Part shown: positions 1-64,000 of the stretch, piece after piece
How positions within the stretch are numbered: the first letter of the stretch is position 1
How the letters are laid out: the number at the start of each line of letters is the position of its first letter
Source: a virus
Reading direction: 5' to 3' (one strand)
DNA: 64,000 nucleotides
Virus record (IMG/VR): IMGVR_UViG_3300045996_003734
Coordinates: 32,001-96,000 of that record
Notes under the pieces: generated by a model
Told to the model about the DNA's origin: nothing
The model's input: the letters and a program-made list of their open reading frames with translations, nothing else
Databases searched by the model: none
Position numbers and translations under genes: made by a program

Positions 1-114
1 GACCCGCTCGGCTTGGTGGGCGGCTCGGACGGCGCGCTCGAAGTCGTCCCCTTGGTCTTCGGAAGCCATGGGAAGGCGCTGGCCTGGGATACCGGGAGCG
101 TTCGGAGGTGCCAT
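1..114 (-). CDS. 5' part of a membrane-anchored coiled-coil protein (homologue of 61912-62376), truncated by the window
   Basis: MAPPNAPGIPGQRLPMASEDQGDDFERAVRAAHQAE matches the N-terminus of 61912-62376. Confidence 0.8.
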   Translation of the reverse strand, partial: MAPPNAPGIPGQRLPMASEDQGDDFERAVRAAHQAERV

Positions 115-118
115 GACG

Positions 119-385
119 TCACTTGGCCGCAGCGGCGATCGCGCAAACGAAGCTCACTAGAGCGGCTGCCACGCCGATCAGGGCCGGCAGCCACCGCTCC
201 TGACGCATGGTCCGCACTTCCTGCTTCAGGGCTTTGTGTTCCTGGAACATCTGCAGACTGATGTCATGGGAGCGCTCGGCGTAGACCTTCGTCTGTCGGG
301 CCTCGTCCTCCGTGCGTGTGCACGACGCCAGAATCAGATCGAGGGTGTCTTTTCGGTCGGTCGGCGTCTTGTCGTCATCGCTCAT
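119..385 (-). CDS. 88-aa coiled-coil protein with a C-terminal TM helix (lysis-associated, holin/XhlA-like)
   Basis: MSDDDKTPTDRK...WLPALIGVAAALVSFVCAIAAAAK; overlaps endolysin end; conserved in copy 2. Confidence 0.7.
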   Translation of the reverse strand: MSDDDKTPTDRKDTLDLILASCTRTEDEARQTKVYAERSHDISLQMFQEHKALKQEVRTMRQERWLPALIGVAAALVSFVCAIAAAAK

Positions 386-1238
386 TGGCGTAGGGCTCCG
401 AATCGGGGGCGAGCTCGCTGGGGTCGGTGTCGCTCGCAGCCTGGGACGCGAGACGCGCGTGCTCGCGCAGGTTCGCGCCAGCCATCCCGACAGCGTTCTG
501 GATGTGCTCCCAGTGGCTCGCCTGGAGGTGCTCCAGCAAGTCCTCCAAACCGTCGTCGCTATCCTTGGACGCAGGCGGAAGCGTGCTGTTGACCACCGGC
601 TCCACGGCGCCGATGAGCGGCAGCTCGCCAAGCAGGCGGTTCTGGTCGAGCACGGGGGCCTTGGAGTCGTAACCGCCGGGGCCGTTCGGGTCGTACGGCG
701 CGACGCGGTGCTGCCAGATGGTGGCTTCCTTGCCGCCTGGGGTCGCGGGCTTGGCCGCGCCCGTGTAGTGCGCAACCCAGAGCGGGCGGTCGAGCAGCCA
801 CGCTGGCTTGCCGAGCATCCCGAACTCGCGCTGCGTGATGTACACGAGCGCATCGCCGTACTCCGCCACCAGCTCGTCGAGGATGTGCTTCACGCCGTCC
901 TGCCACGCGGGCGAGACGTGAGCGCCCGGTTTGGGCATCGGGTCGGCCTCAACGTCGAGCGCCGGCACGATGTCCCCTGCCCCGATGTTGGCGAGCCGCA
1001 GCTGCTCACGAAAGACGGCGAGCTGGTCAGCGGCGTCCTGGCTTGGGCGGAAGAAGTGGTAGAGGCCGACCTTGAGCCCGACGGCGCGAGCCCGCTTCAC
1101 GTGCTCGGCCGTGACGCGGTCCTTCATCAGGCCGTAGCTGCCGCGAACGATGCAGAAGCTCGAGCTCTGGGCGAAGGTCCCCCACGCGAGCGAGGCCGGG
1201 TGCTGGTGGTGCGACACGTCGACGCCGTAGTTCTTCAC
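375..1238 (-). CDS. Endolysin, GH25 muramidase
   Basis: YGVDVSHHQ, GLYHFF, PALDVE (DxE), LWVAHY and IWQH motifs. Confidence 0.92.
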   Translation of the reverse strand: MKNYGVDVSHHQHPASLAWGTFAQSSSFCIVRGSYGLMKDRVTAEHVKRARAVGLKVGLYHFFRPSQDAADQLAVFREQLRLANIGAGDIVPALDVEADPMPKPGAHVSPAWQDGVKHILDELVAEYGDALVYITQREFGMLGKPAWLLDRPLWVAHYTGAAKPATPGGKEATIWQHRVAPYDPNGPGGYDSKAPVLDQNRLLGELPLIGAVEPVVNSTLPPASKDSDDGLEDLLEHLQASHWEHIQNAVGMAGANLREHARLASQAASDTDPSELAPDSEPYANER

Positions 1239-1738
1239 GCCGCGGAGTCCTTCCCGGTGAGCTTCTCGATCTGCCCCGCGAGCCAGCGCTCGAAGGATTT
1301 CGGGTCTCGCCGGCAGCGCTCGAGCGTGGCCTGGACCTCGACCAGCACAGCGAAGCGGACGCCCGAGTGCTCGTGCTGCTTGCGCTCCTGAAGCGCTGCT
1401 CGACGGTCCAGCGGCGCCGGCTCGATGCCCGCCTTACGCACCGTGGCGCGGGCGCTGTAGACCTTCGCGTTGCCGCGGCAGCGCGAGCAGGTCTTGAGCG
1501 CGTCGTCGTCGCGCTCGCCGCCGCACTTGCACCGGCCCTCGCGAGCGTACTGCGCACGGCGCTCGGCCAGCTGGAGGCGGGCGTGGGTGCGCGCCGCCAG
1601 CTGCGAGGCCGCGGCTGCGGTCTTGGCAGCGAAGAAGAACACGCCTCCCTTGGCGTCGCCCTTGCTCGCCACCGGCCTGCAGTCGGTGACCTTGCCCGCG
1701 CCGTCGACGGTGACGCGGAACCAGCTCCTGGTTTTCAT
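1235..1738 (-). CDS. Hypothetical Zn-finger protein (CxC...CxxC)
   Basis: MKTRSWF start; conserved in copy 2 (63497-64000). Confidence 0.75.
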   Translation of the reverse strand: MKTRSWFRVTVDGAGKVTDCRPVASKGDAKGGVFFFAAKTAAAASQLAARTHARLQLAERRAQYAREGRCKCGGERDDDALKTCSRCRGNAKVYSARATVRKAGIEPAPLDRRAALQERKQHEHSGVRFAVLVEVQATLERCRRDPKSFERWLAGQIEKLTGKDSAA

Positions 1739-1950
1739 CAGACGCCGCTTCCCGGCACCTTGCCGCCGCCCAGATCGGGGCGACGGTAGGCCTGTTTGGA
1801 CGCCGCCATCACGGTCGCCTTCTCGACTGCGGATGCCGGGTCGCGGTGGCTGAGCAGCGCGTTGATGAGCGCCTCCAGCGCGGACTCGCCTACCCTTTTC
1901 GCGAGCTCCACGGTCGCAAGCTCGAGCGGCTCCGGAAGCTTCACTTGCAC
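1738..1950 (-). CDS. Small hypothetical protein
   Basis: GAGGAG RBS before GTG; coupled to neighbours. Confidence 0.5.
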   Translation of the reverse strand: MQVKLPEPLELATVELAKRVGESALEALINALLSHRDPASAVEKATVMAASKQAYRRPDLGGGKVPGSGV

Positions 1951-2582
1951 CGCTCCTCGACCCAACGATCACACTCCGCGACGATGGCCTTGCAGCCGGG
2001 AGTCGCGTCGCATTTGTCGTCGGGCAGGTTCGGGAACTTCGACTGCCGGCGCGCCGCGCACTTGGTGTTGTGAAGGGCTAGCGGCCCCGTCGCGTAGTCT
2101 TCGGTGGAGCAGGGCTCCGCGTCTGGACGGCAAGCCACCGCGCACAGCGCCGCCAACCCGAACAGCACCAAGCTCAGCATGTGCAGCACCAAGAGCGTCG
2201 GAGGCTTCATCCTGCCGACCTCCCCGCGGTAGGGCACCCAAGGCACGGCCTTCAGCACCTCGTGCGCCAGCGCTGCGAGCGCGCCGAAGACGGCGCCCTT
2301 GATGGTGGCGCTCACGTCGCCGCCCGTGCTGAGCGCGAGCGTCGTCATGCCGAGGAGCGTGCCCGGCAAGGCCTGCCAGAACTTGCTCAGCACCAGCAGA
2401 ACCGGCGCGGCATCGATTACCGGCACCGGCACGACGCTGGCGAACGCCTCCCACGCACGGGGGAAGAGCTTCCGGAACGCATAGACCACCACGAGCACAG
2501 CCAGCACCAGCAGAGCGCGAGGCACCGCCGGGTCGACGTTTACGGACAGCCACGCGACGGCGGCCTTGAGCTGCGAGAGCAT
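1941..2582 (-). CDS. Holin-like multi-TM protein with a C-terminal Cys-rich lipoprotein-like part
   Basis: Several hydrophobic helices; internal MKPPTLL...AVAC lipobox-like signal; lysis cluster. Confidence 0.6.
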   Translation of the reverse strand: MLSQLKAAVAWLSVNVDPAVPRALLVLAVLVVVYAFRKLFPRAWEAFASVVPVPVIDAAPVLLVLSKFWQALPGTLLGMTTLALSTGGDVSATIKGAVFGALAALAHEVLKAVPWVPYRGEVGRMKPPTLLVLHMLSLVLFGLAALCAVACRPDAEPCSTEDYATGPLALHNTKCAARRQSKFPNLPDDKCDATPGCKAIVAECDRWVEERCK

Positions 2583-2616
2583 GCGCCAGCGTGGCGGCGC
2601 GGCGCCGGCCTGACCC

Positions 2617-2976
2617 CTAGACGGGCTTCGGCGCCTCGAGCATCTCGCCCTCGACGGTGAGGTTGAGCGAGCCCCACCAGCGGTTGTGCGCCACCTCGCG
2701 CAGCGTCACCACGAACGGCCCGCCCTCCTGCGGCGTGAAGATGATCGCGCTCGGCGCTGCCTTCGTGTACTCGCGGCGCACGTAGCTCTGCGCGCTCGGC
2801 CCCTGCACCTCGAGCACGAGCGGCAGCATGACGCCCTCCGGCAGAGCCCGCTTGTAGCTCACGGTGAGCAGCAGCGGTCGACCGGCAGCTACCTTGGCGC
2901 CGAGCTCCACCGCCAAGTCGAAGCGCTTGTCGCGGACGTAGGCCGGCGACAGCTCGTCGATGGTCCGTTCAGCCAT
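2617..2976 (-). CDS. Hypothetical beta-rich virion-associated protein
   Basis: Coupled ORF after the tail fibre gene. Confidence 0.65.
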   Translation of the reverse strand: MAERTIDELSPAYVRDKRFDLAVELGAKVAAGRPLLLTVSYKRALPEGVMLPLVLEVQGPSAQSYVRREYTKAAPSAIIFTPQEGGPFVVTLREVAHNRWWGSLNLTVEGEMLEAPKPV

Positions 2977-3349
2977 TGCCCACGTCCAGCTCGATGTGCT
3001 CGTTTCCGCCGTCGGGGCGGCGGATCCGGATGGTGTGGTGCCCGACGCGGTCGGCAGTAAACGTCACTCGGGACGAGTACCCGAGCGGATGCTCGAGCTT
3101 CGCGGCGGGAGCGTTGGGCGCCTCGGTCACCGCGGCCACGAAGAGTCGACCGCCGAGCGCCGCATCCGCGGGCCCTACCACGCCACCCACCACCGCCTGG
3201 AGCACCACGGGCACTCCGACGGTCGCGACGTAGCGCTTCATGGGGCGCCCCGCGCGCGCGTTCAGGCGGCTGGGCCGCGCCGAGGTGGCGGGGTCCAGCC
3301 AATCGCTAACGATGACGCCGCTGGTCACGCGAACGGTGAAGTCGGCCAC
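2969..3349 (-). CDS. Hypothetical beta-rich virion-associated protein
   Basis: Coupled ORF after the tail fibre gene. Confidence 0.65.
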   Translation of the reverse strand: MADFTVRVTSGVIVSDWLDPATSARPSRLNARAGRPMKRYVATVGVPVVLQAVVGGVVGPADAALGGRLFVAAVTEAPNAPAAKLEHPLGYSSRVTFTADRVGHHTIRIRRPDGGNEHIELDVGNG

Positions 3350-4465
3350 CTAGAAGCCCGAGCCGATCGTGAGGTAGGTGGAGACGTCGTCTCCGTACAG
3401 CAGCTGCCGACCGTTCGCCGCCAGCATGGCGTCCGCCGAAGCCGGGAAGAATCCCGCAGCGAACTTCCACGACGCGCCCGCGTCCTGGCTGTAGAGCATC
3501 ATGTTCCCGGACACGAAGCTCGAGCTGACGAAGACGTAGACGGTGCGACCGAACGCGACGGCCATCGTGTCCAAGCCCAAGCTGAAGGTGCCGCTGTTCG
3601 GCGGCAGCGTGAAGGCCTGATTGGTCCAAGTGATGCCGTCGGTCGACACCGCCACCGCAACCATTCCCGCACCGCCGCCCTCGCCGATCGCGACGTACTT
3701 CTCGAGCTGCGGAATGTAGACGACGTTGGTCCAGGCCTGCGAGGAGGGGAGCGTCCGCTCGAGCCAGTTGATGCCGTCCACGGAGTGGATGAGCTTGTTC
3801 GTGGTTGCGCTCGAGGTGATCACGATCCCGCCGCTCGAGCCGTTGACCGGGCCGACGGCCATGCTGATGCGCGGGTTGTTGTTCGGGACCGTCCGCGAGG
3901 TGAAGGTGAGCGCGTCCGCTGATGTCTCGACGACGCCGGTACCCTCGTGGCCCGCGACCCAGAGCCCGAGTTGCGCGACCCACTTCAGGCACGCCACGGC
4001 CGTCGTGTTCGTCTGCGAGCTCACCGTGGTGGCCATCGTGGACGTGAAGCACGTGGGGAACCGCACATACTTCTTGTTGCTCGAGGCTCCGGGAAGGCCA
4101 CCGACAAGCCCGACCCCAGCCGTTGGATTGAAGTCGGCTGCGCGTTTCCGCGCTCTGAGCGCGCTGATAGACGCAGTGTTGATGATGGTTAGAGCGCCCG
4201 AGCTACCGAGCAGCACCCGAGCGCGTGGGTTGGCGCCGTTTACGTCGACGGTCACCCACACGTCCGAGACGGAGTTGTAGAACGCCGCGAGTCCCGGCGC
4301 GGCTTGCGGCGGCCCCCAGTTTTTGAACGCCGCGACGTCGGTCCACACGGCGCCGTCCGCGGCTTGCGCCTGCTGCTCGTCCAGCTTGTTCAGGTCGCTG
4401 TGCGTGGGGACCTGGTTGTTCACGACGCCACCCGGCCAAACCAACGAAAACGGCCACTTTGCCAT
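3350..4465 (-). CDS. Tail fibre/receptor-binding protein with Asp-box (BNR) beta-propeller repeats
   Basis: SVDGINW, STDGITW and SQDAGASW repeats; follows baseplate genes; start MAKWPF. Confidence 0.7.
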   Translation of the reverse strand: MAKWPFSLVWPGGVVNNQVPTHSDLNKLDEQQAQAADGAVWTDVAAFKNWGPPQAAPGLAAFYNSVSDVWVTVDVNGANPRARVLLGSSGALTIINTASISALRARKRAADFNPTAGVGLVGGLPGASSNKKYVRFPTCFTSTMATTVSSQTNTTAVACLKWVAQLGLWVAGHEGTGVVETSADALTFTSRTVPNNNPRISMAVGPVNGSSGGIVITSSATTNKLIHSVDGINWLERTLPSSQAWTNVVYIPQLEKYVAIGEGGGAGMVAVAVSTDGITWTNQAFTLPPNSGTFSLGLDTMAVAFGRTVYVFVSSSFVSGNMMLYSQDAGASWKFAAGFFPASADAMLAANGRQLLYGDDVSTYLTIGSGF

Positions 4466-5193
4466 CAGCCTACTCCTCCAAATCCAATCGGGGTGACGCC
4501 CACATGCCACCGCCCAGGGGTTGCGTCGGCGCCGCTATCGACGGCGATCGAAAAGTCACTAGTGGTCGGCAGCGCGTCGCGCAGCACGGCTCGCGCGCGT
4601 TCCACGATCGCGAGCTCAGCGCTCGTGAGCGGCCCCGTGTGCCCGACAGCGAAAAGCACGCGCACGACCTGGTCCGACGAGTACGCCGGGCACTGCACGT
4701 GGCCTCGCTCGAGCACGAAGGGCGGCTCCTCGAGATCCGTCGCGAGCGGACCGAACACCCGCCCGTCTTGCACGGTGGCCGCCTGCTCGTGCGGAGACTC
4801 GATGATCGAGAACCGCGGGTCCACAGCGTCCAGGCGCTCTGCGAGGGTGGGCGTGTCGCTCGCAGCGCGCTTCGTCCACGCCTCGGTAACCACCACCCGA
4901 CGCTGCGCCTCGGTGGCGTTCGTCTCCGGGATGATGCCGAGGATGCGCTCGTAATAGGTCAGCAGGTCCGTCGCGAGGTGCGGGAAGGCCTGCAGTAGAG
5001 CGCGCCGGCAGTGGCTCGCTCCTGCAGCCAGCCCCTTCGCCTCGGAGCGCCGCCACAGTCCTTCAATTCCGCGGTCGTTGGGTGCGCTGCCACCCTCCCC
5101 GACCGCTTGGCGCAGCGTCTCGTACGCGCGCTGCGTCGGCGTAGGCCCGCCGCCGACGCGAAACGGCAGCGGGTTGTTGCTGCCCAACGGCAT
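4465..5193 (-). CDS. Baseplate wedge protein (Mu gp48/P2 gpI-like)
   Basis: FPHLATDLLTYYERILGI...TEAQRR signature; downstream of baseplate J. Confidence 0.75.
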   Translation of the reverse strand: MPLGSNNPLPFRVGGGPTPTQRAYETLRQAVGEGGSAPNDRGIEGLWRRSEAKGLAAGASHCRRALLQAFPHLATDLLTYYERILGIIPETNATEAQRRVVVTEAWTKRAASDTPTLAERLDAVDPRFSIIESPHEQAATVQDGRVFGPLATDLEEPPFVLERGHVQCPAYSSDQVVRVLFAVGHTGPLTSAELAIVERARAVLRDALPTTSDFSIAVDSGADATPGRWHVGVTPIGFGGVG

Positions 5194-5687
5194 CAGAACA
5201 CCTCGAGCCAGAACGGATGGTCGACGCCCGTGCCCGCGGCGTCCCACAAGCGCACGTTGATCAAGAGCGGGTTGCCGGCATCGCGCCACGCGTGCGCCTC
5301 GATGCGCTGCGAGAACGAACTCAGGTCGCGGTGGCAGGTCACCCGCGCCGCGAACAGGACCGTCGCAATGTCGACGCTCTCCTGGTCCTTGTAACTTGCG
5401 GCGAAAGTATAGGTGTACGCGCCGGCGCCGCTGCGCGCGAGCTCAGGGTGAAGCTGCGCGTTCTCGGGGTTCCACGCCTCGGCCTGGTGAGCGATCTGGA
5501 AGGCGCCTCCCGAGTACGTGGCGATCACCGACGAGCGCGGGACGACAAGGTTCATGCCGGAGACGGCCTGGAAGGCCGCCTCGAACTGCCGCGCACCGAT
5601 GTCCGTCTCCGGGTTTTCGACCGGGATGGTGTCCACGAACTTGGGACCGAGCAGGCTGCGGAGGAAGCGTCGCGGGAAGCTGGACAT
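5193..5687 (-). CDS. Hypothetical baseplate-region protein
   Basis: TGATG coupling on both sides. Confidence 0.7.
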   Translation of the reverse strand: MSSFPRRFLRSLLGPKFVDTIPVENPETDIGARQFEAAFQAVSGMNLVVPRSSVIATYSGGAFQIAHQAEAWNPENAQLHPELARSGAGAYTYTFAASYKDQESVDIATVLFAARVTCHRDLSSFSQRIEAHAWRDAGNPLLINVRLWDAAGTGVDHPFWLEVF

Positions 5688-7285
5688 CAGATCTCGTAGA
5701 GGCCGACGTGCCCGCAGACGAGCATGTTGGGGCCGAGCATGAGGTTGGTCGGATAGGTCGGGATGGTTTGCGAAATGTCCGCGAGCTCGCCGTCCGCGGA
5801 CGAGCCGCCCAGCGCCTCGATGACCCGCGTGGCGAGCACCGCGCCCGCGCGGAAGGGTTGCTCCTCGACAGCGCCGGGGAAGCGTCCGCCGCGCCCGCCG
5901 CGCACGTCCTCGTCGAGGTCGAACAGCTCGCCCGGACCGAGGCCGTCGAAGTAAGCGGTGATAGCGTTCTGCACGAGCGCGGCGCGCGTGTCCTTCAGCG
6001 CGGGGCTGATGCGCTGCCCGACCTGGACTCCGCCATCAGGCTGGGCCGTCAGCTGAACGCGAAAGACCGAGCCGCCTAGGTCGGTGACGGTGTCGACGCT
6101 AAGCGGAAGGAAGCGGGACTGGTCACGGCTCCACAGCATCATCTGGGGAGCGCTGGCTCCGCTGAGCGCTGCGCCAGGGAGCTGAGCCGGCAGCGTCGCA
6201 TCCGCTGGGCACGAGATCGTGAAGTCCGTGTGGCTCGTCCAACCGACCACGCGCGGCGTAGTCGCGTGGTACGAGGGGAAGGGACGCGCATCAACGAAGC
6301 CCGCCGCGCTGCCCTTCTGCAGGCTCATGCGGAGGGCCACGTCGCAGTACTCGGGGTTCCAGCCGGTGACCACGACGAACGCACGCGAGGGGAAGACCGG
6401 CGAGAGCGGCGGCGTGAGGTAAGCGATCGCCGTCGCGAGCGTGCCGGGGCTAGGCTGACGACCGAGCGGCCCCGCCGTCACCCGCTTCTGGGTGATGCTT
6501 ACCAGCGTCGACCCGGCGTAGAACGCACACGGGTAGACGAAGCCTTCGCTGATTGCGTTCGACGCAGCGCGCGCCCACGCCCGAACGTGGGCGTCGTTGC
6601 CGCCACCAGGTCGGTGGCGAATGATGCCGGCGATGCGCGCAGCTTGTTCGGCGTCCGTCTCGCGGTCCGTTCCGCCGGAAAAGTCCTGAGCGACGGTCGC
6701 TTGCGGCCCCATGTTTGGGTCGCGCGAGATCCAGGTGAGCTGTGCTCCCGCGTTCGGGTTCGTCCCGATGCCCACGCCAACGCACTGCATCGTCACCTGC
6801 AGAACGCCCGTTCCGCCGACGACGCCGCCCGTGATCACCTGGTAGACGTTGCCCGCGCCGTCACGTGCCTTATACGCGCTCGCGTCCCCGAGCGTGGTCG
6901 AGCTGAGCACGATGGTCCCCGGCACTGCAGGCACGTTCACCGGCCCGCTGCCGCCGGTGGCGTCCAGCTTCTTCTCGCCCCAAAGGCGAGCGTGGTAGCC
7001 CTCGAGCCACTTCGTCGAAGCGCGCTCGAGCCGAATCTGGTCTGCTAACCAGAGCGCTTTGCGCTGCTCGCTCTGCCCGTAATCGTCGATGGCTTGCGCG
7101 GCGACGTACCAACGCGAACGCGGCTGCGTTGCTCGCTGGATTTCGTCGAACGTGAAGGGCTGGCCGGTCTCGGGATTGTTGAGAGAACGAAGACCCTCCC
7201 GGAAGTTCGCGAGCACCACGCGGTCGCGAATGTGCCCGACTGGCACGATCGCGAATTCCCGGTCGACGGGCGTACCCAACGGCAT
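5687..7285 (-). CDS. Baseplate J/gp47 family protein
   Basis: FSGGTDRETDAEQAARI...RPGGGNDAHVRAWA motif. Confidence 0.9.
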   Translation of the reverse strand: MPLGTPVDREFAIVPVGHIRDRVVLANFREGLRSLNNPETGQPFTFDEIQRATQPRSRWYVAAQAIDDYGQSEQRKALWLADQIRLERASTKWLEGYHARLWGEKKLDATGGSGPVNVPAVPGTIVLSSTTLGDASAYKARDGAGNVYQVITGGVVGGTGVLQVTMQCVGVGIGTNPNAGAQLTWISRDPNMGPQATVAQDFSGGTDRETDAEQAARIAGIIRHRPGGGNDAHVRAWARAASNAISEGFVYPCAFYAGSTLVSITQKRVTAGPLGRQPSPGTLATAIAYLTPPLSPVFPSRAFVVVTGWNPEYCDVALRMSLQKGSAAGFVDARPFPSYHATTPRVVGWTSHTDFTISCPADATLPAQLPGAALSGASAPQMMLWSRDQSRFLPLSVDTVTDLGGSVFRVQLTAQPDGGVQVGQRISPALKDTRAALVQNAITAYFDGLGPGELFDLDEDVRGGRGGRFPGAVEEQPFRAGAVLATRVIEALGGSSADGELADISQTIPTYPTNLMLGPNMLVCGHVGLYEI

Positions 7286-7740: not shown

Positions 7741-7768
7741 CTACGGAAGGTAGGCGCGCTCGCCCCGC

Positions 7769-8479: not shown

Positions 8480-8486
8480 TCGACAC

Positions 8487-8551: not shown

Positions 8552-8559
8552 GCCAAGTC

Positions 8560-9763: not shown

Positions 9764-9774
9764 GGCGAGAACTC

Positions 9775-11630: not shown

Positions 11631-11632
11631 GG

Positions 11633-12655: not shown

Positions 12656-12658
12656 TGC

Positions 12659-55682: not shown

Positions 55683-55684
55683 GG

Positions 55685-56503: not shown

Positions 56504-56533
56504 GGCGCAGCGAAGCGCAAAGCTCTACGCCCG

Positions 56534-56836
56534 ATGCCCCGTCCGCCCAAGAAGCCGCACTGGCAGACGCTGCTCCCCAAGCCCGAGTGGGCAGGTGGGC
56601 CGCCGCACGTGTCGCGGGAGGTCATCACGGACCGGGTCCTCGTCGGGCACAGCACGCCGACGGGCTCGGGGCAGCTTTGGCGCATCCGGCGGGTCGCAGC
56701 CGACGGCTCGAGCGAGCTCGTGACGATGGCCGGCGAGCCGTGGGAGGGGACGGGGACACAGGCAGCTCTGCGCGCCCAGGTGCTCGGGCAGGAAGACCCG
56801 GACGGTCGCTACATCCCCGAGAAGGTTGAAAGCTAG
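56534..56836 (+). CDS. Hypothetical protein, paralogue of 57152-57385
   Basis: WRIRRVAADGSSELVTMAGEPWEG. Confidence 0.65.
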   Translation: MPRPPKKPHWQTLLPKPEWAGGPPHVSREVITDRVLVGHSTPTGSGQLWRIRRVAADGSSELVTMAGEPWEGTGTQAALRAQVLGQEDPDGRYIPEKVES

Positions 56837-56842
56837 CGGCGC

Positions 56843-57025
56843 CTACGAAGCCTTACCGAGGCGGGCGCGCACGGCTGAGGCACTGGGGCCCACCTCGTCG
56901 ACCACCTCGCGAAGGCGGTCGGTGCTGATGCCGAGGGCCTCCGTCCAGTAGCGAACCTCGTAATCCTCGCTGAGATTGATGCGTGAAGAGTCCTGTGGGC
57001 TTCTCTTGGTCTTGTCGTCGGACAT
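56843..57025 (-). CDS. DUF3606 family protein
   Basis: MSDDKTKRSPQDSSRINLSEDYEVRYW...VG.S..AV. Confidence 0.88.
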   Translation of the reverse strand: MSDDKTKRSPQDSSRINLSEDYEVRYWTEALGISTDRLREVVDEVGPSASAVRARLGKAS

Positions 57026-57151
57026 GCGACAGCCCCAGCACGACGCATGCCAGACGGCCATTGCGGCGGTTCCTCAACGTGACGAGGACGCAAACGCCAC
57101 AAGCCCTTCGTTGGTTGTGCCGCGTGTAGCGAAGGCGTACGGCATTGGGCA

Positions 57152-57385
57152 ATGGTCCCCTCCTATCGCCCGCCACCGAAGCCGGTGGTCCTCGCGTTTT
57201 GGCGCGTAGAGCGCGTGTTCGGTGACGGGCGCCGCGAACTCGTCACGCTGGGCGGTGAGCCTTGGGAGGGTGCGGAGGAGCAGGCTCTAGAGCGCGCGCG
57301 GGTCATGCAGGCTGAGGAGACCGACGTGAAGTTCGAGCTGCTGTCGGTCGTTAGGACGCAACTGGGCAGGCCGGCGTCCGAATAG
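57152..57385 (+). CDS. Hypothetical protein, paralogue of 56534-56836
   Basis: WRVERVFGDGRRELVTLGGEPWEG. Confidence 0.65.
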   Translation: MVPSYRPPPKPVVLAFWRVERVFGDGRRELVTLGGEPWEGAEEQALERARVMQAEETDVKFELLSVVRTQLGRPASE

Positions 57386-57390
57386 GGGAA

Positions 57391-57445
57391 GCCAGCCCGC
57401 CGAAGGCTCACACCCAACCGTTTTCCTTGATGGCGGCGGGCTGGC
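57391..57445. terminator. 12-bp inverted repeat between convergent genes
   Basis: GCCAGCCCGCCG-31-CGGCGGGCTGGC. Confidence 0.45.
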
Positions 57446-57446
57446 C

Positions 57447-57659
57447 CTACGTGTCCCGTGAGGGGTGGGCGAACTCGAACGCCACCGACTCAATGAGCAC
57501 CCGGCCGTTGAGGGAGCACGCGTACCAGGCCTCCACGAGCCTAGCCAATCGCGCGCGATCGAGTTGGCAGAGCTCCCCGTGCAGGCGGGCGATGATGGCT
57601 GCCGTGGGGTCAGGCGGCTCGTTCCTGCGCCGGGTCGGCTCGTCGTCGAGGTCGACCAT
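57447..57659 (-). CDS. Small hypothetical protein, last gene of the late operon
   Basis: TGATG coupling. Confidence 0.55.
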   Translation of the reverse strand: MVDLDDEPTRRRNEPPDPTAAIIARLHGELCQLDRARLARLVEAWYACSLNGRVLIESVAFEFAHPSRDT

Positions 57660-59671
57660 CAGAGCGCCTCGCTGCGAGCGAGCACGTCCCCAAGGACGAC
57701 GGTCTCGAACGACAGACCACGAATGACACTGGGGAGCGTCGTGGCAGTCGCAAACAGCTGGACGGCCGCGACACCATCGATCACCTGCAGAGCGCGCCCC
57801 ACGCCGATCGCAGAGACGTAGCCGAAGCTGACGCCCGTCCCGTTGCCGAAGCCGAGGTTGACCGAGGTTCCCACACCGAGGCCGAGCCCAGCGAACGCCG
57901 CGAGACCTACCCCCGCCACGGTGGCGCCGCCGACGGCTACAGCGACGCCTCCCAGAGCTCCCACAGCAGGCGCCGACGCGATCGTGAGCCCATTTCCTGG
58001 CGCGACGGCACCCGAGTGAGCTGCGCCAACACCGGCCACGCTCTGCAGCGCCCAGGGAATGGCGACGACAACGGCTGCGCCGGCAGCAACACCCGGGGCG
58101 CGCTGCGTCATTCGACCATCGGCGACGCCGACAGTCTGCCCGAGTCCCACGCCCGCGGCGGTGGCGAGGGCCACGCCGTTGCCTGGGGCCGCGGCCGCGC
58201 TCCCGCCGGCCATCACGCCCGTCTGCTGCTCGAGCATCCGAGCCACCGCGGCAGCGACGACCGAGCCCACGGCCACCCCAAGTGCGCGCTGAGTGGTCGC
58301 GCCGGCCGCGACGGCAAAGGCGCTCCCACCGACCGCGACGCCGTCCGCCAGCACGGTGCTCTGGGCTAAGGACGAACCGATGCCGCTCGCCCCGCCGGCA
58401 ACGAAGCCGACGCCCGAGCACACCTCTCGAGAGGCACCCACGGCCACGCACGCAACGGCGCCCACGCCGACGCGGGCCTGAATGTCGCGGCCCACCCCAA
58501 CGCCCAGAGCGGCGGTGAGCGCCGCGCCCGGAGCAGATTGAACCGCCACCGGGGCACCCACCGCCACCAGCGCGGCAGGACCGACGCCGGCGGTGCGCTG
58601 CAGCGCCGAGCCGGCGCCGATGACCATGAAACCGCCCACGCCCACACCCGTGCCGCTCGCGACGACAGGGGAGGAAGCGGAGGCGAAGAACGCAGCCGAC
58701 CCGCGCCGAGCCGTCGTGGTGAACGTCTCAATCGGGCGCTCGTCCGTCGCCTGATACAGGCCCAGCACGTCGTTGACGGCAGCGGGAGTACCAGCGAAGA
58801 ACGTGCGCGGACGGCGCGCTTGCTCGTTCGTAGCGAGCCACTCTTGGTTGAAGACTCGCCGCCGCAAGGCGAAGAATGGAATCGCAGCGGCCACCACGGC
58901 GAACGCGAACGGTCGCCTCAGTGTCGTCGTGAACGTCTCGATCGGGCGCCCGTCCACGAGCTCGCGCTTGACCGAGGCTGTGTAGTCCGGCGTCCCGCCG
59001 CCGCCACCGCCGCCGCCGTCGTGGGACACGAGCAGCATGCCCCACTGCGCGGCGCCGCCGATGCCCCAGGTCACCGCCTGCGCACCAGCGGTGCCCGCGA
59101 GGCGCCAGACAGCACCCCCGTACTCGAAGGCACCAGACGCCACGCTGAACTCCGTCGTCCAGCCAGGGCTCGGAGGGGTGTGCACGGGGCTACCACCGTC
59201 GGCGTACACGTAAACCGACGTGATCTCGTCGCCCACTTGCGTCAGCGCGTCCGTCGTCGCCGTCGGAGCGTTCGTGTTCCCCGACGCCGTGACCGGGGTC
59301 CCGCGCACCGCGCCTGCGCCAGAAATCTCGACGATCGCTCCCGTCGTGTAGTGGCCGTCCGGGGTCCCCACTCCGCTGTATGTAATGGTGACCGTGTGAG
59401 CGGCGCCCGGCGGCACCACGGCTTCCCAAAGCTCAGCCTGGTTCAGGTTGTTGGGCGACTGGGTGCAGCGGCCCACCATCGTCGCTGCTGCACCGTTGAT
59501 CGTGACCGCGCTGACGAGATGCGTCTGGACCGACGAGTAGTGGACCAGCAGGACGCGAACGGTGTTGCCCGGAGTGAAGTCCGACAGCGTGTTCGCGATT
59601 GTGTGCGGGCCAACCGTCGTGACGCCCGAGTGAGGCGCTGCGATGGCTTGGCCTTGGACGCGGGTTGCCAT
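57659..59671 (-). CDS. Putative virion fibre protein (beta N-domain, poly-Gly hinge, Gly/Ala/Val-rich C-terminus)
   Basis: GAGGAG RBS; composition; internal RPIETFTTT repeat. Confidence 0.65.
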   Translation of the reverse strand: MATRVQGQAIAAPHSGVTTVGPHTIANTLSDFTPGNTVRVLLVHYSSVQTHLVSAVTINGAAATMVGRCTQSPNNLNQAELWEAVVPPGAAHTVTITYSGVGTPDGHYTTGAIVEISGAGAVRGTPVTASGNTNAPTATTDALTQVGDEITSVYVYADGGSPVHTPPSPGWTTEFSVASGAFEYGGAVWRLAGTAGAQAVTWGIGGAAQWGMLLVSHDGGGGGGGGTPDYTASVKRELVDGRPIETFTTTLRRPFAFAVVAAAIPFFALRRRVFNQEWLATNEQARRPRTFFAGTPAAVNDVLGLYQATDERPIETFTTTARRGSAAFFASASSPVVASGTGVGVGGFMVIGAGSALQRTAGVGPAALVAVGAPVAVQSAPGAALTAALGVGVGRDIQARVGVGAVACVAVGASREVCSGVGFVAGGASGIGSSLAQSTVLADGVAVGGSAFAVAAGATTQRALGVAVGSVVAAAVARMLEQQTGVMAGGSAAAAPGNGVALATAAGVGLGQTVGVADGRMTQRAPGVAAGAAVVVAIPWALQSVAGVGAAHSGAVAPGNGLTIASAPAVGALGGVAVAVGGATVAGVGLAAFAGLGLGVGTSVNLGFGNGTGVSFGYVSAIGVGRALQVIDGVAAVQLFATATTLPSVIRGLSFETVVLGDVLARSEAL

Positions 59672-59677
59672 GGCTCC

Positions 59678-60367
59678 TCAGAGAGACGGCGGGAGCGCCG
59701 GGACTATCGCGTCCAGCGCCAGCACGGAGTAGCCCGCGGCGGTCAGGTGGATCTGCGTGCCGTCGTAGTAGGTCGTGTCGCTAGGTGTCTGGAGCCTCGC
59801 GTCCGCGGCCGCGTCAGCGATGAGCGGGAATTTCGCGGGGTTGCCTTTGAGGAGCGCGATGAGCGCGAGCCGCGCCGCGTTGTACTGCGTGTTGTTGGAC
59901 GGCGGGGAGGATGTCGTCTCGTAGAAAGCGGGCGAGGTCACCGCCATCGGCGTAAAGCCCGCTGCGATTACAGCGTCGGCCCACAACGCGCTCTGGTCGT
60001 AGCAAGCCTGCGCGGCCGCGGAGGGGTTAGACAGCGTGAGCCCGTCTCCCCATTCGCCGCGGGTGTCCGCGAGGTAGTTGCAGGCCTCGAGCAGGACCGC
60101 GATGTTCAGCCGCCCGGGCATGTACTGGCTCGTCACCGTCGAGACGCGGGAGAGCAAGGTGACGATATCGCCGCCCATGAGCCCCTCGGCGACGTTCGCC
60201 GTCGGCTTTGCGGCTGCGATGAGGGCTCGCGGCGTCTGGCCTCCCGAGACGCCCGAGCCCTCCAAGATCGAGTTGCCGTGGAGGATGACGTTGAGCAACT
60301 GCAGCGGCGCGGGCGGAGCCGCCACACGCCGGTAACCGCCGCGCCCAGAAAAGCGCGCGCCTGGCAC
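59678..60367 (-). CDS. SGNH/GDSL-like esterase
   Basis: HGNSI block I, ACN block III, DGTQIH block V. Confidence 0.8.
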   Translation of the reverse strand: MPGARFSGRGGYRRVAAPPAPLQLLNVILHGNSILEGSGVSGGQTPRALIAAAKPTANVAEGLMGGDIVTLLSRVSTVTSQYMPGRLNIAVLLEACNYLADTRGEWGDGLTLSNPSAAAQACYDQSALWADAVIAAGFTPMAVTSPAFYETTSSPPSNNTQYNAARLALIALLKGNPAKFPLIADAAADARLQTPSDTTYYDGTQIHLTAAGYSVLALDAIVPALPPSL

Positions 60368-60368
60368 G

Positions 60369-60860
60369 TTATCCGCCGTCGAGCTCGGCGAAGACCAGGG
60401 AGCCGGACCAGAGGGTCAGGCCCGTAGGAGCAGCGCGGAGCTTCACGGCTAGCGCAGCGCCGCCGCCCCCTGGGACAATCAAGCGTTTGCGTTCGGTGCG
60501 TTGCCAGAGGTAGCCCGTGAGGTTCCAGAACGCGTCGGGGATTTTTTCCGTGAACGCGCCGGCGCCCTCGGCCGAAGCCAGGACGCCCGACGTGCCTGCC
60601 GCGCCCGCAGTACCGCCGGTGATGTAGGAGTTGGCGTCGCTCGACTTGGTCTTTTCCGGAGTCGCCGAAACGAGCGTCGGGAATGCCGTCGCCTTGAACC
60701 CGATCGACACGCCGACCATCTCACCCGTCGTGGTGCCGCGCTGGTTGAGCTGCACCTCGATGAGCTCGATCACGCCAACGGCGGGAGGGTTCGCGAAGAG
60801 CAGCGTTTGTGCACCGCTGAGGGTCTGATCCGTGAACTTAACGATGTATTCGCGTGCCAT
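60369..60860 (-). CDS. Hypothetical jelly-roll virion-type protein
   Basis: Beta-rich; WSGSLVFAEL end. Confidence 0.65.
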   Translation of the reverse strand: MAREYIVKFTDQTLSGAQTLLFANPPAVGVIELIEVQLNQRGTTTGEMVGVSIGFKATAFPTLVSATPEKTKSSDANSYITGGTAGAAGTSGVLASAEGAGAFTEKIPDAFWNLTGYLWQRTERKRLIVPGGGGAALAVKLRAAPTGLTLWSGSLVFAELDGG

Positions 60861-60872
60861 GGGGCTGTTCCT

Positions 60873-61589
60873 TCAGCTCAGACGGATGAGCGTCGCGGTG
60901 GAAAGTTGGGGGTCCGTGTTCTGGTTCACCTGCAGGGGGACCACCTTGGTGGCGATGCCGCTGCCGAGAGACGAGATCGCGATCGATGCGCCGCCCTGCG
61001 TGGCCGAGACGGTGAAGCGGTCCGTGGTGAGGCCGGTCGAGCGCACCCAGTACACGGTGCCTTCGGTGACGCCGCCGGGGAGCGCGCCGCCCGACTCGAT
61101 GTCGAAGAACGCGATGCGGTCGTCCGCCACGAGGCCGTGAGCGGGGACAAGAATGGTGTCCGCCGTGGCGTCGTCGCACATGAAGGCGCGAGCGCCGAAA
61201 GTCGCATCACCGAAGACGCCCCACGCGTGCATCTCGGTTGCGCCGGACGCCGCGAACCCGAGCGACCAGTACGGAATCACCACCGTCGCGCCGTTGTCCG
61301 TGCGGATGCCGAGGCTCACCGCGGCCGCGAGGTTGATGACGCCGTTGCTCGCCGCGCCGAAGCCCGCACCGCGCGCACAAGCGCCGCGGGCGTAGCCCGT
61401 GTAAGCAGCCTCGCTGACCTGCTGGCTAGCAGGCGCCTCGCCCGGCCACGCCGTGTGGCCCGCGAAGTACAAGCTGCCGGCGGTAGCCGAGGGCTGAAGT
61501 CCGGACGCGTCCCCGACGTTGGCGGCCGCCACGTTCCGGAGCCACAGGTTGAGCATCTTGTTTTCGAACGGGGTGACGAGCATTCCCAT
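60873..61589 (-). CDS. Putative virion structural/fibre-associated protein
   Basis: FEN.ML...HTAWPGE...YTGYAR; HGL..DDRI...YWV. Confidence 0.7.
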   Translation of the reverse strand: MGMLVTPFENKMLNLWLRNVAAANVGDASGLQPSATAGSLYFAGHTAWPGEAPASQQVSEAAYTGYARGACARGAGFGAASNGVINLAAAVSLGIRTDNGATVVIPYWSLGFAASGATEMHAWGVFGDATFGARAFMCDDATADTILVPAHGLVADDRIAFFDIESGGALPGGVTEGTVYWVRSTGLTTDRFTVSATQGGASIAISSLGSGIATKVVPLQVNQNTDPQLSTATLIRLS

Positions 61590-61600
61590 GGCAGCGATCC

Positions 61601-61915
61601 TTACGGAGTTGGGTGCGGAACGACGTGGAGCTTGAACAGCCGGCAGCGTCGTGACCCGGGCTCGAGGACTGGCTCGATGATGTAGGCCCCGGCCTGCGCC
61701 ACCTCCGCTCCGAGAGAGTCGAATTCGTGCCGGGCAACCACCTCGTACTGCGTCGCGCCGGAGAGCACGGTGTCCCACGTGGTGGTCGTGCCGTCGGGCC
61801 TCGTGACGTGGAGAGTGCAGGCGACGATGCCGGCCATGTTCAGGCCGGTCGTGCCGGGGAGCAGGGTGACGCGCAACGCCTCTGGCCCCCTTGCGCCCTG
61901 CAGCAACGTGGTCAT
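61601..61915 (-). CDS. BppU-N-like small structural protein
   Basis: LHVTRPDG..TW...AGAY..E. Confidence 0.55.
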   Translation of the reverse strand: MTTLLQGARGPEALRVTLLPGTTGLNMAGIVACTLHVTRPDGTTTTWDTVLSGATQYEVVARHEFDSLGAEVAQAGAYIIEPVLEPGSRRCRLFKLHVVPHPTP

Positions 61916-62376
61916 CGCCGCCCCGGGTTCTCTGACACCGACTCCGCCGCGATGCGGCCCACGCAGGCCCCCCGCTCTGCGCCGTCGCGGAGCTCGCGGC
62001 AGATGTCTAGCTTGCGGTCGAATTCGCTGCGCTGAATGACGGTCTGCGTGGGGGGCGGCGCCGGCGTCGTGATCCGCACCATGAAGCCAGCGAAGCCGCC
62101 GGAGCCCAGCATGCCCAAGAACACCTTGACTGTCGTGGACGCGGCGAAAGCCTTTGCTCTCTTCGCCAGCAGCTCGAACTCCGTGAGGCGCTGGTCGAGC
62201 GCCAAAAAGGACCCCTCGAGCTTGCCGAGGCGCTCGCCCAGCCGCTGCTCGACGGCGATCGCCACCTGCTCGGCTTGGTGGGCAGCCCGAACGGCGCGCT
62301 CGAACTCGTCCCCATGGTCCTCAGAAGGCATGGGGAGGCGTCGGCCTGGGATTCCGGGAGCGTTCGGTGGTGCCAT
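61912..62376 (-). CDS. Coiled-coil/TM protein of the lysis cluster
   Basis: Coiled coil, TM helix, Cys pair; homologous to 1-114. Confidence 0.7.
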   Translation of the reverse strand: MAPPNAPGIPGRRLPMPSEDHGDEFERAVRAAHQAEQVAIAVEQRLGERLGKLEGSFLALDQRLTEFELLAKRAKAFAASTTVKVFLGMLGSGGFAGFMVRITTPAPPPTQTVIQRSEFDRKLDICRELRDGAERGACVGRIAAESVSENPGRR

Positions 62377-62380
62377 GACG

Positions 62381-62647
62381 TCACTTCGCCACGGCAGCGA
62401 TGGCGCAAACGAAGCTCACGAGGGCGGCAGCTACGCCGATGAGCGCGGGCAGCCACCGCTCTCGGCGCATGCTGACGACCTCCGCCTTCAGTGTCTTGTG
62501 CTCCTCGAACATCCGGAGGCTGATGTCGTGCGAGCGCTCGGCGTAGACCTTCGTCTGTCGAGCTTCGTCCTCGGTGCGAGAGCACGACGCGAGTATCAGC
62601 TCGAGCGTGTCTTTCCGGTCGGTCGGCGTCTTGTCGTCATCGCTCAT
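62381..62647 (-). CDS. 88-aa coiled-coil/TM protein, copy 2
   Basis: Homologue of 119-385. Confidence 0.7.
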   Translation of the reverse strand: MSDDDKTPTDRKDTLELILASCSRTEDEARQTKVYAERSHDISLRMFEEHKTLKAEVVSMRRERWLPALIGVAAALVSFVCAIAAVAK

Positions 62648-63500
62648 TGGCGTACGGCTCCGATTCGGGGGCGAGCTCGCTGGGGTCGGTGTCGCTGGCG
62701 GCGTGCGAGGCGAGACGCGCGTGCTCACGCAGGTTCGCCCCCGCCATGCCGACGGCGTTCTGGATGCGCTCCCAGTGGCTGGCCTGGAGCTGCTCGAGCA
62801 AGTCCTCCAGCCCCTCGTCGCCGTCTTCTGGCGGCGGCGGAAGCGTGCTGTTCACGAGGTCCCGCGCCGTTGCGATGAGCGGCAGCTCGCCGAGCAGGCG
62901 GTTCTGGTCGAGGACAGGCGCCTGGCTGTCGTAGCCGCCCGCGCCGTCCGGGTCGTACGGGGCCACTCGGTGCTGCCAGATCGTTGCGGCCGCCCCGCCC
63001 GGCGTCGCGGGCTTCGAGGCGCCCGTGTAGTGAGCCACCCAGAGCGGACGGTCGAGCAGCCACGCGGGCTTGCCCAGCATCCCGAACTCGCGCTGGGTGA
63101 TGTACACCATGGCGTCGCCGTACTGCTCCACGAGATCGTCGAGGATGTGCTTCACGCCGTCCTGCCAAGCCGGCGAGACGTGGGCACCCGGCTTCGGGAG
63201 CGGGTCGGCCTCGACGTCCAGTGTGGGCACGATGTCGCCCGGGCCGATGTGCGCGGCGGCGAGCTGGTCACGAAAGACGGCCAGCTGATCTGCCGCGTCC
63301 TGGCTCGGTCTGAAGAAGTGATAGAGCCCCACCTTCAGCCCGGCGGACCGCGCTCGTCGCACGTGCTCGAGCGTGACGCGGTCCTTCATGAGCCCGTAGC
63401 TGCCGCGAATGATGGCGAAGCTCGACGTGAGCGCGAACGTCGCCCAGGGAAGCGACGCAGGGTTTTGATGGTGACTGACGTCGATTCCGTACTTCTTCAC
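62637..63500 (-). CDS. Endolysin, GH25 muramidase, copy 2
   Basis: Same motifs; 45 of 287 residues differ from copy 1 by manual count. Confidence 0.92.
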   Translation of the reverse strand: MKKYGIDVSHHQNPASLPWATFALTSSFAIIRGSYGLMKDRVTLEHVRRARSAGLKVGLYHFFRPSQDAADQLAVFRDQLAAAHIGPGDIVPTLDVEADPLPKPGAHVSPAWQDGVKHILDDLVEQYGDAMVYITQREFGMLGKPAWLLDRPLWVAHYTGASKPATPGGAAATIWQHRVAPYDPDGAGGYDSQAPVLDQNRLLGELPLIATARDLVNSTLPPPPEDGDEGLEDLLEQLQASHWERIQNAVGMAGANLREHARLASHAASDTDPSELAPESEPYANER

Positions 63501-64000
63501 GCCGCAGAGTCCTTCCGGGTGAGCTTCTCGATCTGCCCTGCGAGCCAGCGCTCGAAGGACTTGGGGTCTTTGCGGCAGCGCTCGAGCGTGGCCTGCACCT
63601 CGACGAGCACAGTGAAGCGGACACTCGAGTGCTCGTGCTGCTTTCGCTCCTGCAGCGCTTCGCGGCGGTCGAGCCGCGCTGGCTCGATGCCCACCTTCCG
63701 CACGGCCGTGCGCGCGTTGTAGACCTTGGCGTTGTCACGGCAGCGCGAGCACGTCTTGAACGCCTCGTCCTCCCGCTCGCCGCCGCACTTGCATCGGCCC
63801 TCGCGCGCATACTGAGCGCGGCGCTCGGCCAGCTGGAGGCGGGCGTGGGTGCGCGCCGCCAGCTGCGAAGCGGCGGCTGCCGTCTTGGCAGCGAAGAAGA
63901 ACACGCCTCCCTTAGCGTCGCCCTTGCTGGCTACCGGCCTGCAGTCGGTGACCTTGCCCGTGCCGTCCACGGTGACGCGGAACCAGCTCCTCGTTTTCAT
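63497..64000 (-). CDS. Hypothetical Zn-finger protein, copy 2
   Basis: Homologue of 1235-1738. Confidence 0.75.
   Translation of the reverse strand: MKTRSWFRVTVDGTGKVTDCRPVASKGDAKGGVFFFAAKTAAAASQLAARTHARLQLAERRAQYAREGRCKCGGEREDEAFKTCSRCRDNAKVYNARTAVRKVGIEPARLDRREALQERKQHEHSSVRFTVLVEVQATLERCRKDPKSFERWLAGQIEKLTRKDSAA

Follow-up and report, generated by a model that had tools for sequence, protein, structure and literature searches.

Results

Gene content and self-similarity of the record

The virus record is a contig of 109,166 bp, and the window, by which we mean the whole 64,000-nt stretch that was analysed, corresponds to contig positions 32001–96000. PHROG matches were obtained for 22 of 70 proteins. 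The features on which the argument turns are given below in window coordinates; a1, a2 and c denote segments, and X and Y exact repeats, into which the contig divides, and A and B are the two phage strains to which we assign them.

1–14757, no strand: right end of branch a1 (contig 127–46757), strain A, with endolysin, baseplate and tail genes
375–1238, minus strand: endolysin, strain A copy (PHROG 291, E=2.2e-21)
14758–14884, no strand: putative graph node Y, a 127-nt exact repeat of the last 127 nt of the contig
14885–30148, no strand: segment c (15,264 bp), present once according to self-alignment
30149–30274, no strand: putative graph node X, a 126-nt exact repeat of the first 126 nt of the contig
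30275–64000, no strand: left 33.7 kb of branch a2 (contig 62275–109039), strain B, delimited by self-alignment and the exact repeats
31309–32856, minus strand: terminase large subunit (TerL), strain B (PHROG 38, E=2.5e-59)
37928–40331, minus strand: xis-int-attP cassette of strain B, a gap in the self-alignment
38440–39981, minus strand: tyrosine integrase, 513 aa, uninterrupted ORF (PF00589, E=1.9e-11; PHROG 1, E=8.9e-37)
38735–38756, plus strand: attP core, whose 22 nt are those that close a tRNA-Ser(GGA) at its 3′ end, from T-loop to discriminator
39981–40337, minus strand: excisionase-like HTH protein upstream of int (PF12728 HTH_17, 22.4 bits, below the cut-off of 27)
62637–63500, minus strand: endolysin, strain B copy (PHROG 291, E=5.3e-19)

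Contig 1–46884 is collinear with contig 62149–109166 in 19 self-alignment blocks of 72–93% identity at an offset of about 62 kb, so that the contig comprises 1.75 genome units. The original prediction, made from the window, had noted that the lysis module recurs at a constant offset of 62,262 bp, and this is borne out: window 1–1738 has a second copy at +62,262 bp with 84–86% identity (2–301 against 62264–62563, 84%, and 611–910 against 62873–63172, 86%, both pairs at exactly this spacing). The similarity does not end just outside the window, as a local duplication would, but runs on through the collinear contig regions given above; at the left, window 1–14757 is collinear with contig 93602–109039 at 85–88% identity. 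The two endolysins share 84.3% amino acid identity over 287 aa and 82.2% DNA identity, with 79 synonymous against 45 non-synonymous codon differences and 102 of 154 base differences at codon position 3, in agreement with the roughly 84% identity and many synonymous changes described earlier. Synonymous change also predominates in eight further ortholog pairs of equal length, and over all 28 ortholog pairs between the units the amino acid identity ranges from 58 to 98% (92.8% for TerL, whose unit-1 copy lies at contig 1810–3354). This pattern supports the earlier view that the repeat is not terminal redundancy, and the two units are distinct, related phage genomes, each under selection.

Between the two lysis copies lies one full gene complement, as had also been predicted: a complete late-gene set by PHROG (TerL, portal, protease, major head, sheath, baseplate, endolysin) together with an integrase and early genes. 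Segment c, for which self-alignment found no second copy within the contig, encodes the tail sheath, major head, protease, minor head and portal proteins and the C-terminal part of a beta-helix protein (PHROG), and window 30275–64000 contains TerL, the xis-int-attP cassette, early genes, a variable block and the lysis genes. The contig also encodes a protein with a ParB N-terminal domain, and one frame of a 99-nt repeat region translates into an unconvincing Ala/Arg-rich product.

Exact repeats at the contig termini

Contig 109040–109166, the terminal 127 nt, recurs exactly at contig 46758–46884 (node Y), where it falls in the 3′ end of a 202-aa gene. At the other terminus, the 126 nt of contig 1–126 recur exactly at contig 62149–62274 (node X), within a 907-aa beta-helix gene; both contig ends fall within phage genes. 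The two repeats are the longest and second longest exact matches in the contig. The units share 170 exact matches of 25 nt or more, and after the two at the termini the next longest measure 116, 86 and 85 nt; across the entire contig, a single 127-mer recurs. The 21-mers have a mean frequency of 1.03 (ratio 1.031), and thus lack the rise expected of identical copies. Since the two longest exact repeats lie exactly at the termini, they carry the signature of a de Bruijn path X-a1-Y-c-X-a2-Y with k = 127, a largest k that we deduce from the overlap lengths, of which one is 127 nt while the other, at 126 nt, speaks somewhat against this reading. Further, because the contig ends on these repeats and they are the only ones of 126/127 nt, a strain switch may be sought within or at the edges of window 14758–30274, and not at 38735, where the original prediction had drawn the boundary between two phages.

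Integration site and its cassette

A hybrid att site had been proposed at 38735. The att core itself is real: it matches exactly over 21 nt, in an alignment that extends to 22 nt, the 3′ end of tRNA-Ser(GGA) in a Myxococcota MAG, it lies antisense to Int codons ~409–416 inside the int ORF, and phage DNA flanks it on either side. Its hybrid nature is not supported, however, since both arms lie within the single xis-int cassette of strain B, and no more support was obtained for a chimeric integrase rebuilt at the junction, the int gene being an uninterrupted ORF, in which the catalytic domain extends to about residue 366 and is followed by a C-terminal tail of ~147 aa. A count of att cores, which had been suggested as a check, gave one in the 109,166 bp on both strands at up to 4 mismatches.

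Unit 1 has a cassette of its own (contig 8576–10724), non-homologous to that of strain B. Over 301 aligned positions the integrases share 25% identity, and the longest word common to both cassettes is 13 nt, no excess over chance (shuffles: mean 12.1, maximum 15); the unit-1 counterpart of the excisionase-like protein (contig 10512–10730) matches HTH_17 with 61.6 bits. Because the core lies inside a cassette wholly unlike that of unit 1, we take the site at 38735 to be phage B's own ordinary, unintegrated attP for tRNA-Ser(GGA), situated within the int ORF, and the phage arms on its two sides would then simply be those of an attP. For unit 1, a tRNA-like string at contig 9368 is a putative att core: it occurred in 0 of 301 sampled Myxococcota genomes at ≤1 mismatch and was absent from G001 even with 3 mismatches allowed, which counts against the two-strain model set out below.

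ARAGORN found no tRNA in the window, the sole tRNA gene of the contig being a tRNA-Trp in unit 1, and no complete tRNA-Ser was found in the contig. An Rfam scan of window 33000–44000 (E≤1) gave no match and did not detect the 22-nt tRNA fragment. No host gene was recognised in the contig, and 0 of 13 ORFs in the non-homologous variable blocks had a Pfam family at cut-off. A 30-mer of the core plus right arm had no match in the viral collection, so that the search yielded neither an attP nor an attL form from a close relative, and an integrated copy of the strain B phage was not found either.

Relatives of the integrase show what the integrated state looks like. Six were found in 5 of 151 sampled Myxococcota genomes, and in four of the six a complete tRNA gene adjoins the integrase convergently at the equivalent of Int residues 407–416; in the relative L020 the overlap between int ORF and tRNA amounts to 49 nt. 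The window holds only a 22-nt fragment, in contrast to the complete tRNA beside these integrated relatives, and this points to the attP state. The host of both phages is probably a member of the Myxococcota.

Related contigs and sequencing runs

The closest relatives of the record are IMG/VR metagenome contigs that represent single-unit fragments. An independent one (L013) begins inside node Y and continues as an 87–91% variant of c, and another, 18.8 kb long, covers TerL-X-c-Y plus 1.1 kb beyond, with 74–100% identity to c per 250-bp window. Phasing of c by these independent contigs was attempted and rejected: the 18.8-kb contig is 93.7% identical to a1 and 89.3% to a2 left of Y, 90.3% identical to a2 right of X, and only 86% identical to L013, and is itself a mosaic, uninformative on adjacency here.

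Two soil runs (X1 and X2) were compared as short Logan contigs, with window 12501–32500 as the query and listed pieces of 0.4–1.7 kb. Both contain a swarm of variants of this region, with 314 pieces in X1 (87 at ≥99%, 136 at 95–99% and 91 at 90–95% identity) and 263 in X2 (56, 115 and 92, respectively). For example, a 1161-nt piece from X1 spans node X with 33 differences and represents another variant. These short pieces of mixed identity held nothing decisive on the adjacency of the segments. Megablast of window 1–20000 against 50,697 phage records gave no match, and a 40-mer from node Y had no exact match in the metagenome collection.

Discussion

A probable assembly path through two strains

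Taken together, we consider it highly probable that the record is an assembly path almost twice round the circular graph of two co-occurring soil phage strains. In this model, a short-read de Bruijn assembler (largest k = 127) would have made a single walk through the cyclic graph of two co-occurring variants of one temperate, sheathed-tail phage of ~62 kb. Nodes X and Y would be shared, alternative 46.6-kb branches a1 and a2 would run from X to Y, and a single 15.3-kb edge c would lead from Y back to X, so that the contig X-a1-Y-c-X-a2-Y halts at both ends where the only continuation is back into c. Genome A would consist of a1 + c (62,148 bp) and genome B of a2 + c, or of a2 and a c-like segment (62,282 bp), and the two would be separate and unintegrated, each with its own xis-int-attP cassette. 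The JGI metagenome workflow is described as running metaSPAdes with k = 33, 55, 77, 99 and 127 (bioRxiv 10.1101/2020.09.30.320929). It has been reported that assemblers leave k-mer-length repeats at the contig ends of circular templates and occasionally concatenate genome copies (CheckV, PMC8116208), and that phage graph components can contain bubbles and variant genomes can be assembled together (Phables, PMC10563150).

Segment c may be common to both strains or the property of one. Beside the nodes, a1 and a2 are only ~88–93% identical, and therefore a 15.3-kb c identical in both strains would be surprising. Should c belong to just one strain, the contig is mis-joined at one of the two ends of c. 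If the molecules are separate and c is really shared, the two phages, which differ in integration site, would have had to exchange a structural module of 15 kb very recently; this is possible and more probable than a joined molecule, although we lean against it.

Alternative explanations

The original prediction read window 1–38735 as prophage A and the remainder as prophage B, lying in tandem in a bacterial chromosome with a hybrid att site and a chimeric Int between them. The true att core at 38735, with phage DNA on either side, would suit such an arrangement, and islands are known to form tandem arrays at tRNA genes (125 of 3919 in Islander; PMC4383910). However, a tandem of this kind would require a second core, the attL, close to contig 9 kb and thus one unit (~62 kb) further left; the contig includes this position, yet the core is single and the attL is missing there. 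Moreover, the low identity of the unit-1 integrase and its different cassette argue against it, no host flank or full tRNA-Ser accompanies the phage DNA (the contig may be too short to reach the outer end), and the contig termini coincide with k-length repeats. We regard a tandem polylysogen as very unlikely. The same k-length repeats at the termini speak against one phage genome of at least 109 kb with an ancient, since-diverged whole-genome duplication. Such a duplication would agree with both copies being kept under purifying selection, but it would double every essential module, would leave c as the sole part without a second copy, and would not be expected to have only single-unit fragments as related contigs in other samples; it is scarcely credible.

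A real molecule in which the strains are joined is less remote than these, though it too is improbable. Homologous recombination across a 15.3-kb c (the head/sheath/portal module), were this truly identical in both, could have fused two co-resident or co-infecting soil phages, otherwise 7–28% different and with different integrases, into a heterodimeric circle or a concatemer of the order a1-c-a2-c, present as a replication intermediate or an episomal cointegrate. Its de Bruijn graph and its contig would be indistinguishable from those of two monomers with c in common, two cases that a short-read graph cannot separate, and a ParB N-terminal domain protein would suit an episomal life style. On the other hand, a molecule of ~124 kb would be too large for a head built for ~62 kb, a perfect 15-kb direct repeat would quickly resolve to monomers, and no ParA or plasmid replication gene was recognised by PHROG or Pfam. 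Both units also carry intact, different xis-int-attP cassettes, which is typical of integrating phages, and the short Logan pieces of the two soil runs lent no support to the joined form.

Implications

If two separate strains were indeed assembled into one path, a public 109-kb virus record is really two genomes of ~62 kb each, and anyone taking it at face value would overestimate genome size, read into it polylysogeny and hybrid att sites for which there is no counterpart in nature, and be misled in clustering and in estimating completeness. Since the copies differ by 7–28%, the usual concatemer screen passes the record (mean 21-mer frequency 1.03, against a flag at 1.4), whereas it is caught by the simple additional question of whether either end of a contig is identical to some internal site over the length of the assembler's k. 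The record would then yield a pair of related temperate phages with sheathed tails, which probably infect Myxococcota and whose xis-int-attP cassettes have been swapped, and the attP inside the int ORF of one of them, in the style of Mx8, is a useful but ordinary addition.

Comparison with known systems

Like the concatemer contigs made by assemblers (CheckV; the topology class of MetaVR/IMG/VR), the record holds more than one genome unit and has k-mer-length repeats at its ends. Unlike them, its units are two strains 72–93% alike rather than copies of one genome, and its terminal repeats match internal sites rather than each other. MetaVR flags concatemers at a mean 21-mer frequency of >1.4; the record would be the strain-variant form of the concatenation artefact and not the same-genome form. 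Phables describes co-occurring mosaic variants that share some unitigs, differ in others and can be output joined by assemblers or binners (PMC10563150). One shared edge c and two alternative branches would correspond to this, in a graph reconstructed from the contig alone, but at 46.6 kb the present bubble is very long, and with identity falling to 72% it is also deep.

Tandem arrays in Islander resemble the record in having two integrase-bearing units in series and a tRNA-derived att core. In the Islander definition, an array is called only if every member brings an integrase of its own together with a separate fragment of the common tDNA (PMC4383910). By contrast, there is one tDNA fragment here and none in contig ~8.6–10.7 kb, no complete tRNA-Ser and no host flank, and the two integrases are unrelated, with cassettes that share no word above chance where an array would have the same or a compatible integrase-att specificity.

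The closest parallel for the integration module of strain B is Mx8, whose attP core lies within the int coding sequence, integration giving int a new 3′ end (PMC6070905); the integrases of Mx8 and SSV are both described as extending across attP (Islander, PMC4383910). In strain B, too, a tyrosine recombinase ORF runs across the attP core, the phage targets a tRNA gene at its 3′ end, and a Myxococcota host is likely. Integration at this attP, within the 3′ tail of int, would replace about the last 97 Int residues, as in Mx8. In tblastn against the 50,697 phage records, Int had three weak matches (29–31% identity over ~1/3 of the protein), with no Mx8 at E≤1e-5. The int/attP arrangement of strain B would work like that of Mx8, a likeness of layout rather than of sequence. 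Mx8 targets a tRNA-Asp gene and has a short tail, and we count the sheathed tail of the strain B phage (PHROG 165 tail sheath) as a difference from it.

Two Related Gene Sets in One Contig

The window contains one complete late-gene set on the − strand, together with the following genes and modules (window positions):

375–1238, − strand, endolysin (PHROG 291)
3350–14668, − strand, baseplate and tail genes
15749–17269, − strand, sheath
20424–21554, − strand, major head protein
22048–23676, − strand, protease
26779–28545, − strand, portal
31309–32856, − strand, TerL
38440–39981, tyrosine integrase
early module, + strand, with SbcCD-like and ParB-N proteins
62637–63500, − strand, endolysin, second copy (PHROG 291)

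Profile searches recognised no host-like genes among the contig proteins. A 907-aa beta-helix protein (window 28760–31483, − strand; PF13229 right-handed beta-helix, E = 5.2e-10) is encoded between the portal and TerL genes, an unusual location for a tailspike- or depolymerase-like protein.

The original prediction that a repeat recurs at an offset of 62,262 bp was confirmed, as window segments 2–301 and 611–910 are each repeated at this spacing with 84 and 86% identity, respectively. The two endolysins share 84.3% protein and 82.2% DNA identity, and synonymous codon differences outnumber non-synonymous ones (79 vs. 45), with a third-position excess likewise present in eight further ortholog pairs of the same length. 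The copies are two functional gene sets under selection, which bears out the earlier view that they are not terminal redundancy; nor are they sequencing noise. The window corresponds to positions 32001–96000 of one 109,166-bp contig, classed as a virus record. In a self-BLAST of the whole record, contig positions 1–46884 are collinear with 62149–109166 in 19 blocks of 72–93% identity, and protein comparison identified 28 ortholog pairs between the left and right parts (hereafter units 1 and 2). Two related genomes are thus present, as originally proposed, and, judged from this collinearity and these orthologs, the record covers a phage genome of about 62 kb roughly 1.75 times over.

The units, representing two strains, differ in several respects. 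The largest non-homologous block (window 54759–61602 in unit 2, contig 24244–31340 in unit 1) has a lower G+C content (0.65–0.67), and each version carries one − strand ORF of 640–670 aa, the two sharing only their last 20–60 or so residues. A neighboring ORF has a weak likeness to a phage fibre protein (18.7 bits vs. a cut-off of 27), and none of the 13 ORFs in strain-variable blocks had a Pfam match at cut-off; genes of the largest block may have host-range or accessory roles. Unit 1 also carries, among conserved early genes to the left of the window, a complete tRNA-Trp(CCA) (contig 11311–11384, − strand), while the equivalent unit 2 site (window ~41222–41326) is about 100 bp shorter and lacks it; the gene is probably a phage-borne tRNA of one strain only. 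Among the conserved genes, the SbcD-like/SbcC-like nuclease pair of the early module (window 45967–49528, + strand; PHROG 100 and 77) is one of the most diverged: the SbcC-like protein has only 62% identity to its unit 1 counterpart, and no unit 1 partner was found for the SbcD-like gene, since the gene was not called there. A 105-aa protein (window 41763–42080, − strand) resembling the DnaA C-terminal helix-turn-helix (PF08299, 31.2 bits, just below the 31.5 cut-off) has a unit 1 counterpart with 89.5% conservation. At window 9144–9440, a 99-nt unit occurs three times in tandem (copies 78–83% alike), with a unit 2 counterpart of the array at contig 103423–103702; one translated frame of this region looks non-coding, and our crude gene caller placed no gene in 9126–9775.

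Contig Ends and the Order of the Units

Comparing the units yields 170 exact matches of ≥25 nt. The two longest coincide precisely with the ends of the contig: its final 127 nt (109040–109166) are identical to 46758–46884, and its first 126 nt to 62149–62274. The next longest matches are 116, 86, and 85 nt, and only one 127-mer is repeated in the contig. The JGI metaSPAdes workflow is described as using a largest k of 127 (bioRxiv 10.1101/2020.09.30.320929), and the CheckV description states that contigs from circular templates carry k-mer-length repeats at their ends and that assemblers occasionally concatenate genome copies (PMC8116208). Taken together, the contig can be read as an assembly-graph path X-a1-Y-c-X-a2-Y, in which X and Y would be shared nodes:

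contig 127–46757, branch a1 (unit 1)
window 14758–14884, node Y
window 14885–30148, segment c, single copy
window 30149–30274, node X (in the middle of the 907-aa beta-helix gene)
contig 62275–109039, branch a2 (unit 2)

On this path, both contig ends would stop where the sole continuation re-enters c. The graph is thus cyclic, with the two strains forming a long bubble, and it implies monomers of 62,148 and 62,282 bp. It follows that any strain switch in the window lies at or within 14758–30274, not at 38735.

Strain mixtures, the precondition for such a graph, are common for this phage. For example, two soil runs contain many variants of the stretch, and in one of them 314 pieces (short Logan contigs) comprised 87 at ≥99%, 136 at 95–99%, and 91 at 90–95% identity. 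Other samples have supplied independent IMG/VR contigs, each a single-unit fragment of a mosaic relative, including an 18.8-kb contig that spans TerL-X-c-Y at 74–100% identity per 250-bp window, and a 9.1-kb contig that starts within node Y, is identical over its first 102 nt to the end of the present record, and continues as an 87–91% variant of c.

We therefore consider it very probable that the head-to-tail order is artefactual and arose when a mixture of strains was assembled. Alternatively, the contig might mirror a real heterodimer circle, a1-c-a2-c, which would give the same short-read graph as two monomer circles with c in common. The identity between a1 and a2 beside the nodes is only ~88–93%, and hence c may be genuinely common to both strains as a module exchanged recently, or it may come from just one of them, with one of its two junctions mis-joined. 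Existing concatemer screens would miss a strain-variant artefact of this kind, since its mean 21-mer frequency is only 1.03, whereas the MetaVR concatemer flag, as described, is set above 1.4.

The att Site and Integrase

The original prediction placed a hybrid att site, joining prophages A and B of a tandem polylysogen, at window 38735. The att core itself is borne out: the + strand there resembles first a T-loop and then an acceptor arm, and a Myxococcota MAG has a tRNA-Ser(GGA) gene whose extreme 3′ end matches the 21-nt core with zero mismatches, the identity extending over 22 nt (window 38735–38756). The junction is not. The prophage model needs a second core one unit farther left, near contig 9 kb and within the record, and none is there; with up to four mismatches allowed, the whole contig has a single core. 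Contig ~9 kb instead holds another cassette, an excisionase-like HTH_17 gene (10512–10730) and an integrase (9140–10531) with only 25% identity to that of the window. The two cassettes form a non-homologous block (contig 8576–10724 vs. window 37928–40331) with no common words above chance (longest 13 nt; shuffles, mean 12.1, maximum 15), and this block takes in both arms of the 38735 site. The int ORF, previously regarded as chimeric, is uninterrupted and wholly part of the unit 2 cassette. The tandem polylysogen with a hybrid att and a chimeric Int is thus unsupported, and is contradicted by the core count; when both arms of an att site are phage DNA, the site is simply attP.

The core lies antisense in the integrase ORF, at codons ~409–416 out of 513 and so beyond the catalytic domain, whose end is near residue 366. 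Six integrase relatives (32–42% identity) were found in 5 of 151 sampled Myxococcota genomes, and four of them adjoin a complete, convergent tRNA gene (Ser-GCT, Glu-CTC, Ser-CGA, and Gly-CCC; genomes L016, L018, L020, and L021). In these four loci, which show the integrated state, the tRNA 3′ end corresponds in position to Int residues 407–416, and in L020 the int ORF extends 49 nt into the tRNA. The window site, where phage DNA flanks just a 22-nt tRNA fragment on either side, is in the unintegrated attP state. The four relatives suggest that in one group of Myxococcota integrases the ORF routinely runs across att. A tRNA-3′-end-like string in the tail of the unit 1 int ORF (contig 9368–9392), placed like the unit 2 core and not found in 301 sampled Myxococcota genomes at up to one mismatch, may be the unit 1 attP core, its target being a tRNA in some host outside the sample, or may be due to chance.

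Comparison with Known Systems

For a true tandem array, Islander requires every member to carry an integrase of its own plus a tDNA fragment, the tDNA being the same throughout (PMC4383910), and the present record does not fit this definition. Its likeness to the phage components with bubbles described for Phables (PMC10563150) lies in the strain bubble within a cyclic graph. For the myxophage Mx8, attP is reported to lie inside int, such that integration creates a new int 3′ end (PMC6070905; Islander, PMC4383910). Although the Int studied here has no detectable sequence kinship to Mx8 Int, a sequence search of a phage collection having returned no Mx8 match, the two phages are alike in that the attP core lies inside the int ORF.
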